The notes under the pieces: model-generated | Seen by the model: only the letters and a program-made list of their open reading frames with translations | What the model was told of the DNA's origin: nothing | The model's database searches: none | Program-made: the position numbers and the translations under genes | Origin: Promethearchaeota archaeon | GTDB taxonomy: Archaea; Asgardarchaeota; Lokiarchaeia; Sigyniarchaeales; SOKP01 | Assembly: GCA_029838195.1 (NCBI GenBank) | Contig: JALGVJ010000005.1 | Span: 1-64,000, forward strand | DNA length: 64,000 nucleotides | Reading direction: 5' to 3' | Shown: piece after piece, positions 1,380 to 6,062 of the stretch | Layout: each line of letters opens with the position of its first letter | Numbering within the stretch: the first letter of the stretch is position 1

Positions 1380-2792
1380 TTAAGAAGGAGGGAAAAGAGC
1401 CGATTCATCCACCGTGGGCATTTCAGGATCATTTAATGCTTTTTCAATTTCCTCACTAGGCAATTCATAATCTTTTAAATCGCCGGTCATGTATTCCTTG
1501 TATGCGGAAAGATCAAAAAAGCCATGTCCACTAAAATTAAATACTATCGTCTTCTTTTCACCATTTTCTTTAGCCTTTAAGGCTTGAACCATGGCTTCTT
1601 TAACCGCATGAGCAGTTTCTGGTGCTGGTAATATACCTTCTGCTTTTGCAAAGAGAAGCCCCACTTCAATAATTTCAGTTTGATGATGCATGACCGCATC
1701 GATGATTTTATTATTGTATAGATTAGATATTATAGGTGCGATTCCGTGATATCTCAAACCACCTGCATGAATTGGACTAGGAATGAAATTATGTCCTAAC
1801 GTATGCATTTTTAAAATGGGAGCTTGTTTGGCAGTATCTCCATAATCCCATCTGTATTGCCCCTTACAAACGCTAGGACATGCTTTTGGTTCCACCCCAA
1901 TTATCTCCAGATCTGATAAGGTCCCATTCAGTTTATCTCGTACGAAGGGAATGATAAATCCTCCAAAATTAGAGCCCCCGCCCATGCATCCAATGAGCAC
2001 GTCAGGTTTAGCTCCTACTTTTTCTAATTGAATTTTAGTTTCTTGTCCTACGATAGTCTGGTGTAACAAAACAAAATTTACAACACTTCCTAAAGAATAT
2101 CGGGCCTTATCACTTCTAAGACTATGTTCCACGGCTTCTGAAATGGCAATTCCGAGACTTCCGGGATGTTCGGGATCTTTTTCATAGAATTTTTTTCCCG
2201 ATTCCGTGAATCGCGAAGGAGAGGCATGTACTTCAGCATTAAAAGCTCTCATTAAAATTTTTCGACCAGGTTTTTGGTGAAAACTAGCTCGTACCATGTA
2301 GACAACGCATTTCACACCAAAGAGATTGCACCCAAAAGATAATCCCGAGCCCCATTGACCTGCGCCTGTTTCCGTTACCAATTCCTCTACTCCTTCCTTT
2401 TTCGCATAATAAGCTTGTGCGATTGCTGTATTCGGTTTATGGGATCCTGTTGGAGAGACCGATTCGTTTTTATAAAATATTTTAATATCATCTCCTTCGA
2501 TCCCCAATTCTTTTTCAAGACCTAGCGCACGATGCAGTGGCGTGGGACGGTAAGTTCGCGCAAAAATTTCTCTTAAATCCTTTGGGATGGGTATAATGGG
2601 GTCCGTTGAGACTTCTTGGAGCACGCATTCCTTTGGAAAGATAGCACAAGCCATTTCAAAAGGTACGGGTTTTCCATCCATTGGACTAACCAATGGCGTC
2701 ATGGGGGTGGGTAAATCTGGCAAAATGTTCACCCATTCTTTTGGGAGTTCTCCCGGTTCTAATAATATTCTTGCTTCAAAATTATTTCCCAT
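1380..2792 (-). CDS. trpB2: Tryptophan synthase beta chain 2 (TrpB2 type)
   Basis: PLP-lysine motif SPTGSHKPN, ETGAGQWG, GGGSNFGG, HAGGLRYHG, FNFSGHG; long TrpB2-type N-terminus; no trpA nearby. Confidence 0.95.
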   Translation of the reverse strand: MGNNFEARILLEPGELPKEWVNILPDLPTPMTPLVSPMDGKPVPFEMACAIFPKECVLQEVSTDPIIPIPKDLREIFARTYRPTPLHRALGLEKELGIEGDDIKIFYKNESVSPTGSHKPNTAIAQAYYAKKEGVEELVTETGAGQWGSGLSFGCNLFGVKCVVYMVRASFHQKPGRKILMRAFNAEVHASPSRFTESGKKFYEKDPEHPGSLGIAISEAVEHSLRSDKARYSLGSVVNFVLLHQTIVGQETKIQLEKVGAKPDVLIGCMGGGSNFGGFIIPFVRDKLNGTLSDLEIIGVEPKACPSVCKGQYRWDYGDTAKQAPILKMHTLGHNFIPSPIHAGGLRYHGIAPIISNLYNNKIIDAVMHHQTEIIEVGLLFAKAEGILPAPETAHAVKEAMVQALKAKENGEKKTIVFNFSGHGFFDLSAYKEYMTGDLKDYELPSEEIEKALNDPEMPTVDESALFPPS

Positions 2793-2825
2793 TTTTCTTA
2801 CCTTTATACAGTAAAATTGTTTTTA

Positions 2826-3033
2826 TTCGTGTCTCAGAATAAATATTGGAGTTCAATATTTATCGTGCACGAAAAAGAGATAAAAATTTCTAAAGCTTCA
2901 AGAGTGTCAAAACACTTGACAAGAGAAGCAGAGGTGATTTGGTTTATTCCAATGAACAGGCGTTCTCTAACGCCATTGCCACTGCCAACGCCAAGAATTT
3001 ATAAGAAGTGTTGACATATATTTAAACCAAATC
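2826..3033 (-). promoter_or_regulatory. Structured 5' leader of trpB2 (candidate attenuator)
   Basis: Inverted repeats 2936-2946/3023-3033 (11 bp perfect), 2959-2964/2969-2974, 2905-2910/2916-2921, 2839-2848/2854-2863 and 2826-2831/2868-2873; U-rich tract on the mRNA at about 2872-2889. Confidence 0.65.
2967..3017 (-). CDS. Trp-rich leader peptide (uORF) MSTLLINSWRWQWQWR upstream of trpB2
   Basis: Minus strand ATG TCA ACA CTT CTT ATA AAT TCT TGG CGT TGG CAG TGG CAA TGG CGT TAG; 4 TGG in the last 8 codons; ends about 175 nt upstream of trpB2 on the same strand; TATA-like TTTTTATATA at about 3063-3072. Confidence 0.85.
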   Translation of the reverse strand: MSTLLINSWRWQWQWR

Positions 3034-3113
3034 TTAAAATATTGAAAATAAAAAATCATGATTATATAAAAACTTAATCAATTTTGGAAAGCCCCTTGGG
3101 GAGAATGATCTCT

Positions 3114-3518
3114 TTATCTTCCTTCAAAAATTTTTTTAAGATTATTTGCAGCTACTCTCATTACTTTTACGGTTTTCATCATGGTATCAATAATCGTGCC
3201 CGCACACATAATCACGAATTTTCCCGCATTGCTGATGACGATGTATCCATTTTCTGCTCGTACGATGATCTCATCTAAGTCTTCTTGAAATAGAGTTTGT
3301 ATGGTAGAACGGCCTGTTAGGAGAATCGCTGATATTTGCCCGCAGAATTGGTCAGCATCCACGTTGTAATGGGGCAAACTAGAAAATGCTATTTGATATC
3401 CTTCAAAACTCACTAGTGCAATTGCTTCAATATCTGCATTCGTAGTGATAAAGGTGATTTGAGGGCTAATTTTTTCTATATCATCTTGAGTAATTCCCAA
3501 ATCTGCGCCAAATTCCAT
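3114..3518 (-). CDS. Roadblock/LC7 (LAMTOR/MglB-like) domain protein
   Basis: 134 aa with the pattern IEAIALVSFEGYQIA...LDEIIVRAENGYIVISNAG typical of the roadblock fold. Confidence 0.85.
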   Translation of the reverse strand: MEFGADLGITQDDIEKISPQITFITTNADIEAIALVSFEGYQIAFSSLPHYNVDADQFCGQISAILLTGRSTIQTLFQEDLDEIIVRAENGYIVISNAGKFVIMCAGTIIDTMMKTVKVMRVAANNLKKIFEGR

Positions 3519-3761
3519 TCGTTGCGAACCTTAAGTAAAGTATTAAGATTTTAAATATATAGAAATAATGAGGCAATTTTTATTTATATTTTTTCATGAT
3601 GGGAAATAGTCAATTTAAAAAAAAAGGGGAAGCAAATGAACAAGAGATATGAAAGAAAAAAATAATTGTCAAATTTTTCTTGTTTAAGATATATTTATTT
3701 TAGAGTTTGTTTATAATTATTAAAGAAGGCATATTAAAATATAAAAAAGAAGGACTGTATC

Positions 3762-6062
3762 ATGATTACGACGAGAGAGGCAATCAATTATCAGTTTTCT
3801 ATAATTTATGGATACTCGTCTCAAAAGGATGATTTTTCGGTAGGAGATGTTTTTGGACCGGGGAATTTGACGAGAGAAAAGGTAAAACAACTTTCTCATG
3901 AAGTCATCCGGTTTTTAAGGATGTATAATGCCGTTTTACGAGATTTTTGCGGTTCGGAAGTATTTTCTATCGAATTTGAACTTCATAATTTGGTTGAGTT
4001 AAACATACCTTATCCAAAATCCATGATACTCATTCCCGGTCGATTTAAGGATCGTGAAAGCTTATTACTTGCGTTAAAGCCGGATACGGGCTACATTAAC
4101 ATGCATAAATCAAGAGCATCCGTGGATACAATAAGCAAGCTCTTTTTCGAGGTTGAAGAATTTAGCGAGCATCCCGAGTTAAATTCTCAAGAAAAGGAGA
4201 GATTCTTGAATAAATTTGCCTCTCGTTTTGCATTAAGATTATTCGGAGAGCTTCTTGAAAATAAATGGGCAAAAAAACTAATTGGACTTAGTGAAGCTCT
4301 TCCTACGGAAAAAGACATGCTCACTAAATATATTGATATTTCTTCTAAATATGAAATATCATGGTTAACCAGGCCTCCTAAAATAAAAATAAAAGAGCCT
4401 AAATTTCAAAAGATTAAAAATCCGCCTGAGGAAAAATCCATTTTAGATCATTTAAAATACAAAATTTCAGAGCCGAGTGCTTATTTCATCGTAGAAAAAA
4501 CCGTACAATTAGGGTCAGATTTGTTTAATTTAGCAAATACAGGTACCATAGATGAGACAAAAGAACAGCTCGTGCTTTTCATTGTACGGAAATTACAAGA
4601 AGAATTTAAGAAAATTTCTTCTCCTTATTTTGTTAATAAATTCATGCCTAAAATGAGAGCAATATTAAAAGATATAGAAGTTTATTTTCAAGAATTCATA
4701 GAGCATTCCAATACATTTTTAAAGATGGGAGAAGTGGGAACGCTTTTGGATTTATTGGAGAAATTTAAATATTATGTGTGTGAGAAGGGGCACTCATGTA
4801 ATAATGATTATGAAGAGATCAGTACAATTGCGATTAATTATTTTAAGCAATACATTATCGAGCAAGAAAAGTTAAGAGCTATAGATTTGAGTTCAGGTGT
4901 AAATTATTTTTCAGAACTCATAAAAAGCAGTTTCAAGTTGATACAAGAGGCTCTACCCAGTTATCTATCTCGAAAAAAGCTAATAGAATTGGAGCAATCC
5001 TTCCATAAATTATTAAAGGAGAAATTGGAGCAAGAACAAGAACCGGCACGGATATTAGGACATAAAATTATTGAAAAATATCATGAAAATCTTAGAGAGC
5101 TCATTGAAAGACACCCGCTCGTGTCCAAGAAAACACATTTCTATGATGATAAACTCTTGAAAGAAGCATTTGACTCCATTTTACATGAGAGTTTAGATTC
5201 TTTTTTTGATTCTTTTCAATTAGGGATTGCCGATATCATCTCATTTGCTGAAGAGGGACTCGGAAGCAGTGTTAATAGCGTGAAAGATCACATGGAAAAA
5301 TTTAAAACTTTTGAAAAAGAGCTTCATTTCCTTATGAATTATATCTTACGAGATTCTACAATCAATCGATTCTTAAAACAATATTCTATTGAAGAATTAA
5401 ATGATCCCCTTGACTTTTTGACCCGTTTTTCTCGTTTTTTGGAGAGAAGGATGGGAGGATTTAATTTGCATTGGGATAAATATATATTGGAATGGATTCA
5501 GGATTTTATTAATAAACTTGAGGAGACCTCGCTCCAAAAAGATTTACCTTTTATAGAAGTACATGAACAATTCATTACCTATTTGGAAGAAAGAGAGAAT
5601 TATGAAACTCAAATTGAAGCTTTCATGGATTTTTTAGATGGATACATAGCAAATGTAGAAGATCTTGAACAAAAGGAGGTGCTCTTAGAATTTTTTAAAC
5701 AATATGAATTTTGTTTGGATATTAAAAAAGAATTTCCTCAATACTTGAAAAGGAAAGTTAAAAAAGTAATTGAAGCATTTAAACCGACTAACGAGCCCCG
5801 AATACCCATTTCTTATTTATCTATCGAGAATAGACAAGATTTTTTTGATTATCTAAGAGAAACGGAGCTAAAATATTTTTCTAAATTAATTCCTCGTCCT
5901 AAAACAATCATCTTGCGACATTTATTAACGAATGATGAGAAAGAGGTATTTTATGGCGATTTATATCATGTCTTCGAGTTTAAATTCTTAAAATCTTACT
6001 TGGAATTAAGTGTGAATGATAATTTTAATAGAATATTTAGAGAATGGTCCAGAAGGCTTTAA
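3762..6062 (+). CDS. Hypothetical protein, 766 aa, largely alpha-helical
   Basis: Long ORF with genome-typical composition; no recognisable motif. Confidence 0.8.
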   Translation: MITTREAINYQFSIIYGYSSQKDDFSVGDVFGPGNLTREKVKQLSHEVIRFLRMYNAVLRDFCGSEVFSIEFELHNLVELNIPYPKSMILIPGRFKDRESLLLALKPDTGYINMHKSRASVDTISKLFFEVEEFSEHPELNSQEKERFLNKFASRFALRLFGELLENKWAKKLIGLSEALPTEKDMLTKYIDISSKYEISWLTRPPKIKIKEPKFQKIKNPPEEKSILDHLKYKISEPSAYFIVEKTVQLGSDLFNLANTGTIDETKEQLVLFIVRKLQEEFKKISSPYFVNKFMPKMRAILKDIEVYFQEFIEHSNTFLKMGEVGTLLDLLEKFKYYVCEKGHSCNNDYEEISTIAINYFKQYIIEQEKLRAIDLSSGVNYFSELIKSSFKLIQEALPSYLSRKKLIELEQSFHKLLKEKLEQEQEPARILGHKIIEKYHENLRELIERHPLVSKKTHFYDDKLLKEAFDSILHESLDSFFDSFQLGIADIISFAEEGLGSSVNSVKDHMEKFKTFEKELHFLMNYILRDSTINRFLKQYSIEELNDPLDFLTRFSRFLERRMGGFNLHWDKYILEWIQDFINKLEETSLQKDLPFIEVHEQFITYLEERENYETQIEAFMDFLDGYIANVEDLEQKEVLLEFFKQYEFCLDIKKEFPQYLKRKVKKVIEAFKPTNEPRIPISYLSIENRQDFFDYLRETELKYFSKLIPRPKTIILRHLLTNDEKEVFYGDLYHVFEFKFLKSYLELSVNDNFNRIFREWSRRL

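Follow-up and report, generated by a model that had tools for sequence, protein, structure and literature searches.

The question at this locus is whether a short upstream open reading frame (uORF), rich in tryptophan (Trp) codons, lets an archaeal gene respond to Trp. Ribosome-mediated attenuation is a textbook bacterial mechanism. Our analysis concerns a 64,000-nucleotide stretch of DNA, called the window below, and the genome to which it belongs (4.5 Mb, 33% GC, 96.6% complete). The original prediction, made from the window alone, was that ribosomes stalling at the Trp codons control trpB2 read-through or translation. It placed these events in an 'Asgard-type' archaeon. This assignment holds, since the relatives found with the TrpB2 protein are Promethearchaeota/Promethearchaeia MAGs.

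A Trp codon-rich uORF precedes trpB2

The predicted uORF, of 16 codons plus a stop, is present at 3017..2967 and encodes MSTLLINSWRWQWQWR*. Note that this, and every other window feature described here, is on the minus strand. Read directly from the sequence, the codons are ATG TCA ACA CTT CTT ATA AAT TCT TGG CGT TGG CAG TGG CAA TGG CGT TAG, with the start codon at 3017-3015. The four TGG triplets are codons 9, 11, 13 and 15 (2973..2993). They alternate with CGT, CAG and CAA, to give a UGGCNN repeat. Downstream, and separated from the uORF by 175 nt, is the trpB2 ORF (1380..2792). Its ATG is at 2792, again as predicted, and an AGGU resembling a Shine-Dalgarno (SD) sequence is found at 2800..2803. 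The role of this AGGU is inferred, and its assignment rests on the usual archaeal anti-SD. The trpB2 leader is immediately preceded by a gene in the same orientation, which encodes a 134 aa Roadblock/LC7-domain protein (3518..3114). This neighbour is kept on the same strand in many family members (loci L015-L030).

The trpB2 product is a 470 aa stand-alone TrpB-like PLP enzyme that matches TIGR01415 (607 bits) and PRK12391 (643 bits). Its score against the canonical TrpB model is under the cut-off. In the whole genome, which is 96.6% complete, we detected no trpA, canonical trpB (trpB1), trpD or chorismate-binding trpE; all controls were positive. TrpB2 is the sole Trp-forming enzyme detected in this genome. 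For this reason, sensing of tRNA-Trp charging at trpB2 would be physiologically sensible. Stand-alone trpB2, with these other trp genes undetected, points to a Trp auxotroph that salvages indole, although this is an inference.

An ORF of this size could, in principle, occur by chance in an AT-rich spacer. Small size is the only argument for such an origin. The motif TGGCNNTGGCNNTGGC, a TGGC-N2 repeat with a strict 6-nt period, has a single occurrence in the window, where 0.04 are expected. Genome-wide, there are approximately 20,300 intergenic short ORFs (sORFs) that start with ATG and have 5-40 codons. Only two independent examples contain at least four Trp codons, and MSTLLINSWRWQWQWR ranks first for Trp among intergenic short ORFs of the 4.5-Mb genome. 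Note that TGG accounts for 1.06% of codons in the genome's long ORFs. The original prediction judged four Trp codons unlikely by chance, and these numbers bear that out. A chance origin is refuted by conservation of the uORF in ~100 genomes and also, besides Trp density, by the frame test and covariation described below. We consider it scarcely credible.

No analogous leaders for other amino acids were found in this genome. An HHHH-containing sORF (C35:153725-153796, plus strand), 17 nt upstream of a gene for an AMP-binding acyl-CoA synthetase, was rejected; the gene is not His-related and the match is probably due to chance. Separately, two near-identical intergenic sORFs of this genome, MAWAWWKLREVSCSTTSGPMPTACAR(N/S), on contigs C34 (93614-93697) and C35 (169571-169654), represent a repeated element.

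The leader is found at two different trp loci in relatives

The original prediction could be challenged by examining DNA upstream of orthologous trpB2 genes. TrpB2 orthologs were identified in 38 of 41 relatives. Many have an ORF of 15-18 codons, ending W-x-W-x-W, at about -225 to -150 from trpB2. Examples of the encoded peptides are MATVNNWAWRWQWPWRWR, MSNLFNFAWQWRWRWI and MAALRIISWQWPWHWQ. In a few lineages the start is not ATG; a same-genus relative has GTG and one genus has TTG. Hence, across the family, W-rich uORFs of kept length and position precede trpB2. Three sister families (f2, f3 and f4) have diverged W-x-W uORFs upstream of trpB2. These are longer or shorter, and end in WAW, WPW or WSW with 1-4 codons before the stop. 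Among the sister-family trpB2 upstream regions examined, a W-rich uORF was missing in two genomes of one genus. Upstream regions of Aquificaceae and Micrarchaeota TrpB2 genes had no W-x-W uORF. In a Bacteroidales record (L224), the sORF MHALNNMFWWWRCSRFQKS, with three tandem Trp codons, is located ~357 nt upstream of a gene for a distant PLP-enzyme homolog, and is possibly a bacterial trp-type leader peptide.

For a wider search we used a covariance model, R1, built from eight instances after trimming to the P1 helix described below. Within the Promethearchaeia (Asgard) family to which this organism belongs, R1 matches 99 of 135 genomes, mostly once each, with E-values down to 1e-22. There is one match only in the genome studied here. 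Of 100 matches, 80 are upstream of trpB2 (~130-150 nt) and 13 are upstream of trpD, which was identified by TIGR01245 with more than 400 bits. The remaining matches are one at a contig end and one weak false positive inside a long ORF. Five matches are versions of the leader with only two non-adjacent Trp codons. Outside the family, a class-level model search gave weak matches only. One, in genome G040, is true and is upstream of its trpB2; the matches in G159 and L171 were discarded as false positives. A search of 121 whole genomes with the pattern TGGNNNTGGNNNTGGNNNTGG was dominated by Gly-rich coding repeats in other frames and was uninformative.

Some genomes have the leader at both trpB2 and trpD, and others at trpD only. 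In genome G144, the only trpD locus examined for downstream genes, the leader heads a complete operon, trpDCFBAEG. The best evidence for a role in Trp-specific regulation is that one and the same element precedes two trp loci that are not homologous to each other. At loci L083 (1640-1912), L122, L124 and L141, a ~90-aa ORF with no family match lies between the leader, with its second hairpin H2 (see below), and trpD. This stretches the spacer to ~400 nt in those relatives. In several family members the uORF is lost or degraded while H2 and trpB2 are kept (H2 persists without a W-rich uORF in G006, G017 and G021). It follows that the uORF is dispensable in those organisms.

Selection maintains the leader reading frame

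If the leader is translated, its reading frame should bear marks of this. Our frame test used 89 unique leader sequences and a segment set only by the first TGG of the run, extending 24 nt upstream. Stops in frame with, and upstream of, this TGG were absent (0 in 712 codons), compared with 70 and 72 in the other two frames. In 83 of the 89 leaders, an in-frame ATG occurs before any stop, and in 56 it is exactly 24 nt upstream of the first TGG. Such an ATG is almost never present in the other frames. At the other end of the run, a stop follows the last TGG by 1-3 codons in 80 of 89 cases. Note that kinship among the genomes inflates these counts; the N-terminal nucleotides are nonetheless highly diverged.

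The homologous peptides contain 2-6 Trp residues (mode 4) and the mode of ORF length is 16. Overall, Trp makes up 23.3% of leader-peptide residues, against 1.06% for long ORFs genome-wide. The N-termini vary freely (MATV..., MSTL..., MTLAK..., MVTE...), and the Trp run is kept. From these comparisons of sequence, we conclude that selection keeps the leader frame open. The pattern indicates selection for an ORF that is read and for its regulatory codons, rather than for the peptide sequence. This is the classical leader-peptide signature. Three of the features that define leader-peptide attenuators are present: an ORF with kept start and stop, enrichment for the cognate codon, and a co-oriented position upstream of Trp-synthesis genes.

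These data also bear on whether the UGG repeats could serve as a binding site in an untranslated RNA. The ligand might be a TRAP-like, multimeric, Trp-activated protein or tRNA-Trp itself (T-box-like, with UGGN:NCCA pairing to the tRNA end). Such a site would fit the strict 6-nt period of the UGGC-N2 repeat, and the element is a structured RNA with an extra conserved UGG past the stop, in no fixed frame. Left unexplained are the frame-specific absence of stops, the ATG at a fixed distance and the stop right after the run. Furthermore, no TRAP family protein (PF02081) was found in the genome, in a search for which the B. subtilis control was positive. An Rfam scan of 2500-3900, with E up to 10, gave only chance-level matches (E of at least 0.7), and neither Trp_leader (RF00513) nor a T-box was among them. 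ARAGORN did not recover tRNA-Trp in this genome (16 tRNAs in all), so pairing with the acceptor end is unassessed. We regard a binding site in place of a translated ORF as quite improbable. Several of the 16 tRNA genes have introns that are long or unusual; it is evident that introns abound in the tRNA genes of this genome, and that most of these genes escape detection.

The uORF is enclosed in a putative RNA domain

The uORF is flanked by complementary sequences. The first, GAUUUGGUUUA, is 11 nt in length and just upstream of the uORF start (3023..3033). It is 100% complementary to the second, UAAACCAAAUC, at 2936..2946. In minimum free energy folds, the two arms form 11 perfect pairs, generating helix P1. 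For individual folds, P1 is a long-range helix of 8-13 bp, with the 3' partner 25-45 nt past the stop. In a 100-sequence alignment, all six modelled pairs have compensatory changes (e.g. AU 40, GC 34, GU 12). The covariation score is 0.373, versus 0.178 for shuffled data (0/500) and 0.02-0.10 for slid partners. Note that this alignment was obtained by fitting to the model, a procedure that biases it towards the structure.

Inside P1, a GC-rich hairpin, P3 (GGCGUU-AGAG-AACGCC; 2959..2974), was apparent from covariation and from a scan for terminator-like hairpins. The last Trp and Arg codons make up its 5' arm, with the stop codon at the edge of the stem-loop. In P3, 83% of alignment cells are paired and double changes occur in four of five pairs. 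The ratio of G·U to A·C is 30:8 in P1 and 38:7 in P3, as expected for an RNA made from the minus strand. Fold z-scores are all negative and modest (mean -1.9). RNAalifold, applied to a plain MAFFT alignment, predicted no structure, with the helices out of register. Covariation indicates that P1, as a long-range helix, encloses the leader ORF and that the P3 hairpin sits over its stop codon.

Beyond P3 is the conserved motif CAUUGG (2949..2954; consensus UUGCAUUGG), which is complementary to the start-codon region (AUG:CAU). In a same-genus relative with a GUG start, the post-P3 motif is CAC. The start-codon region is, in fact, complementary to both the Trp-codon run and post-P3 UUGCAUUGG. The two or three candidate pairings of this region are 70-77% paired (70% for AUG:CAU) with little covariation. 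The uORF has no conserved SD sequence, and pairing with the Trp-codon run can hide its start codon. A further conserved UGG is found past the stop, in no fixed frame.

A promoter-like box upstream and a T-rich tract downstream

The original prediction placed a TATA-like box upstream of the uORF. We found this box, AAGTTTTTATATAA, which is BRE/TATA-like, at 3075-3062 (listed as 3062..3075). A box of the RTTAAnTTTTTAWA type is upstream of P1 in most relatives. Matches to the regular expression WANTTTWTAW are present in 63 of 97 sequences, and 65 of 75 matches fall 31-50 nt upstream of the element. The median distance from the centre of the box to the uORF ATG is 56 nt. Taking archaeal TATA-TSS spacing at its usual value, we infer a TSS in the window at ~3040-3043, roughly 23-26 nt upstream of the uORF ATG; from the median distance in relatives, the inferred figure is about 25-30 nt.

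Immediately past P1, the spacer is pyrimidine/T-rich and G-poor, with T4-T5 runs (2881..2935). Across 97 leaders, the first ~35-40 nt past P1 are 52% T and 6% G. Runs of at least five T occur past P1 in 73 of 97 leaders; 62 of 96 upstream control segments also have such runs. P3 is the only terminator-like hairpin in 2700-3200 and its tail is moderately U-rich (45% T). The tract is a candidate for archaeal termination. It is consistent with archaeal termination signals, although this is inferred rather than demonstrated. A local hairpin, GCUUC-ucuu-GUCAA-guguu-UUGAC-acucuu-GAAGC (2884-2926), is found inside the T-rich spacer and is not obviously conserved.

The promoter-box expression occurs in 17 of 96 spacers between leader and gene, versus 63 of 96 segments upstream of the leader. 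The absence of a comparable conserved box between them points, if only indirectly, to a shared transcript for leader and gene. A box, an ORF and a T-rich tract after a stable fold could also be parts of an independent small gene, with its own promoter and terminator, that is merely syntenic with the trp genes. Such a gene might encode a cationic peptide, rich in Trp and Arg, that acts on membranes as RW-repeat peptides do; it might also, or instead, give rise to an sRNA that acts in trans. The leader peptides are indeed rich in W, R and Q. Moreover, attenuator RNAs and leader peptides of bacteria are capable of activity in trans (PMC7298713, PMC7968998). Against this, the element is linked to trpB2 and to trpD, which are not homologous, in genomes and contexts that differ, and synteny cannot by itself account for such linkage. 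Nor does a separate gene fit with the lack of conservation in the N-terminal half of the peptide, or with the absence of a second conserved promoter box before the downstream gene. We therefore give an independent small gene little credence.

A second conserved hairpin is tied to trp genes

Between the T-rich tract and trpB2 is a further module, H2 (2811..2880). This is an AU-rich hairpin of 13 bp, with the invariant apex UUG-AnnUC-CAA and perfect 10-bp arms at 2839-2848 and 2854-2863. H2 lies ~78 nt past P1, and its apex is at a median of ~60 nt upstream of the gene start. In a structure-naive alignment, H2 is 85% paired, 10 of 13 pairs have double changes, and none of 500 shuffles reaches its score. 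A covariance model of H2, called R2, gave exactly one match per genome in 22 of 24 family relatives, and in the genome studied here. Every one of these matches falls within a trp leader, ahead of either trpB2 or trpD, and this also holds for genomes that have lost the uORF. Sister families lacked H2 in the R2 search.

The GU:AC ratio for H2 is 27:10. On this evidence, we favour an RNA helix over a DNA palindrome. The GU:AC ratio and the lack of a conserved box in the spacer both speak against H2 as a DNA operator for a second promoter, without excluding it. The function of H2 is unknown and it could be a protein-binding site. Many relatives also have a small covarying hairpin (CACAU...AUGUG) after H2.

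A proposed kinetic model for regulation by the leader

How might these parts work together? In our judgement, the element is probably a cis-acting, Trp-sensing leader of the trpB2 mRNA that is read by the ribosome. A translated Trp-codon sensor is supported. Translation itself, stalling and the output step are inferred, there being no expression, TSS, 3'-end or ribosome-occupancy data.

In the model, transcription would start ~25 nt upstream of the 16-codon ORF, from the conserved archaeal promoter box. The ORF would then be translated, with its Trp codons near the 3' end and inside the RNA domain closed by P1. When charged tRNA-Trp is scarce, the ribosome would pause on the Trp codons and keep the P1/P2/P3 domain unfolded. 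If this paused state lasts while RNA polymerase crosses the T-rich tract, read-through would result. When Trp is plentiful, the ribosome would finish and leave, and the compact domain would form beside the T-rich, G-poor tract. The transcript would then be ended early or destabilised. Hence, pausing is predicted to give higher expression of trpB2 or, in relatives, trpDCFBAEG. Premature termination is the most likely output step. This too is inferred, and we would put it slightly below an even chance.

We prefer a kinetic model because no switch, complementarity or covarying alternative pairing was found. Folding of 89 leaders, constrained by a ribosome footprint, identified no consistent switch, and accessibility of the main gene's SD sequence was unchanged. 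The probability of P1 was 0.42 for free RNA, 0.43 with a ribosome on the Trp codons and 0.26 with a ribosome on the stop. When four segments of the leader were scanned for duplexes with downstream sequence (spacer, H2 and SD), no above-chance complementarity was detected (mean z ~0). One candidate, pairing of post-P3 AUUGGA with UCCAAU of the H2 apex, was rejected; variants of the motif do not covary with the apex. In short, folding, duplex and covariation checks did not find an antiterminator, or any other mutually exclusive pairing. Simple hairpin-termination logic is also problematic. With a ribosome stalled on the first Trp codons, P3 could still form, and this effect has the wrong sign. 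The original prediction is supported by the comparative test that it proposed for itself. The evidence for a translated, Trp-sensing leader is good; control of trpB2 read-through or translation is still an inference, with no antiterminator or alternative pairing found that might connect it with stalling.

The lack of a terminator/antiterminator pair leaves room for the same sensor with a different output. A stalled ribosome could shield the mRNA from 5'-to-3' exonucleolytic decay, or alter translation or processing via the H2/H3 module near the trpB2 ribosome-binding site. Protection of mRNA by stalled ribosomes is exemplified by ermC stabilisation in Bacillus. The location of P1, right at the start of the transcript as predicted, would suit such an output. 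So would conservation of H2 as a single-copy element in both trpB2 and trpD leaders, with its apex ~60 nt before the start codon. Conversely, SD accessibility does not change in the constrained folds, and H2 can act independently, as it persists at loci without the uORF. The T-rich, G-poor tract, right after P1, is in keeping with a termination signal. We consider these other outputs unlikely, without dismissing them. Control by premature termination, dependent on ribosome pausing at Trp codons, remains the model that we prefer.

Comparison with known systems

When we searched the literature for attenuation or leader peptides in archaea, Asgards included, bacterial cases alone came up, and no archaeal leader-peptide attenuator was found. 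Leader-peptide attenuation with its own architecture, very probably in the form of a ribosome-read Trp sensor, would be present in a domain of life where none is described in the literature searched. With somewhat more reserve, we favour the view that Archaea have, in this Trp sensor read by the ribosome, a first leader-peptide attenuator. It would be widespread in a Promethearchaeia order and control both the trp operon and stand-alone trpB2, and its architecture (the enclosing P1, an archaeal promoter, the T-tract and H2) would have evolved independently of bacterial trpL.

Several consequences follow. The ~100 Asgard genomes with a conserved, selected Trp-codon leader ORF supply a concrete instance, open to testing, of regulation through nascent-transcript translation. 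The leader is also a natural reporter for transcription-translation coupling, and for termination, in Asgard archaea. If the model is correct, the prokaryotes most closely related to eukaryotes regulate genes by means of such coupling. In organisms without the rest of the pathway, the leader marks trpB2 as responsive to Trp starvation, which supports a role in indole salvage. Finally, H2 is a second, unexplained, single-copy RNA hairpin tied to trp genes.

The closest comparison is with E. coli trpL (RF00513). Both are short ORFs (14-16 codons for trpL and 15-18 here) in the 5' leader of Trp genes, with Trp codons near the 3' end. Both have a stop codon beside an RNA hairpin, a U-rich tract downstream, and non-regulatory residues that are free to vary. 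Unlike trpL, the Asgard leader is in an archaeon, with a BRE/TATA-type promoter, and its Trp codons alternate (W-x-W-x-W) rather than being in tandem. In addition, the whole Asgard ORF is enclosed by P1 in a three-helix domain, and we found no alternative pairing of the 1:2 / 2:3 / 3:4 type. Leader and gene are 130-150 nt apart, and the spacer between them has an extra conserved hairpin, H2. There is no similarity of sequence or model, with no Rfam match.

The polycysteine sORFs of mycobacteria, proposed as attenuators of Cys genes, are also short ORFs rich in one residue that precede matching biosynthetic genes. As far as the accessible part of that report goes, they are proposed to sense charged tRNA by ribosome stalling, without a classical terminator/antiterminator (bioRxiv 10.1101/834739). 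They differ in being bacterial and leaderless, and in sensing Cys; no enclosing P1 domain is described in that part of the report.

Like the TRAP-binding (G/U)AG repeats of the Bacillus subtilis trp leader, the UGG triplets are periodic trinucleotide repeats in a trp leader RNA. Unlike those, the Asgard repeats belong to a selected ORF and keep to its frame, and no TRAP (PF02081) was found in the genome. TnaC, of the E. coli tna operon, is a case where the translation state of a leader peptide controls downstream factor-dependent termination. This is a possible analogy if an archaeal factor acts on the G-poor tract. However, TnaC senses free Trp via the nascent chain and induces a catabolic operon. 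The Asgard leader precedes genes that make Trp, and has many Trp codons, as expected for sensing of tRNA charging.

In archaea, trp control in response to Trp is known from TrpY, of Methanothermobacter, and Tar (TK0271), of Thermococcus. These transcription factors are the only archaeal trp regulators that the paper on them describes, and it notes that little else is known (PMC6737238). TrpY and Tar bind DNA at promoters, whereas the Asgard leader is an RNA/ORF element.
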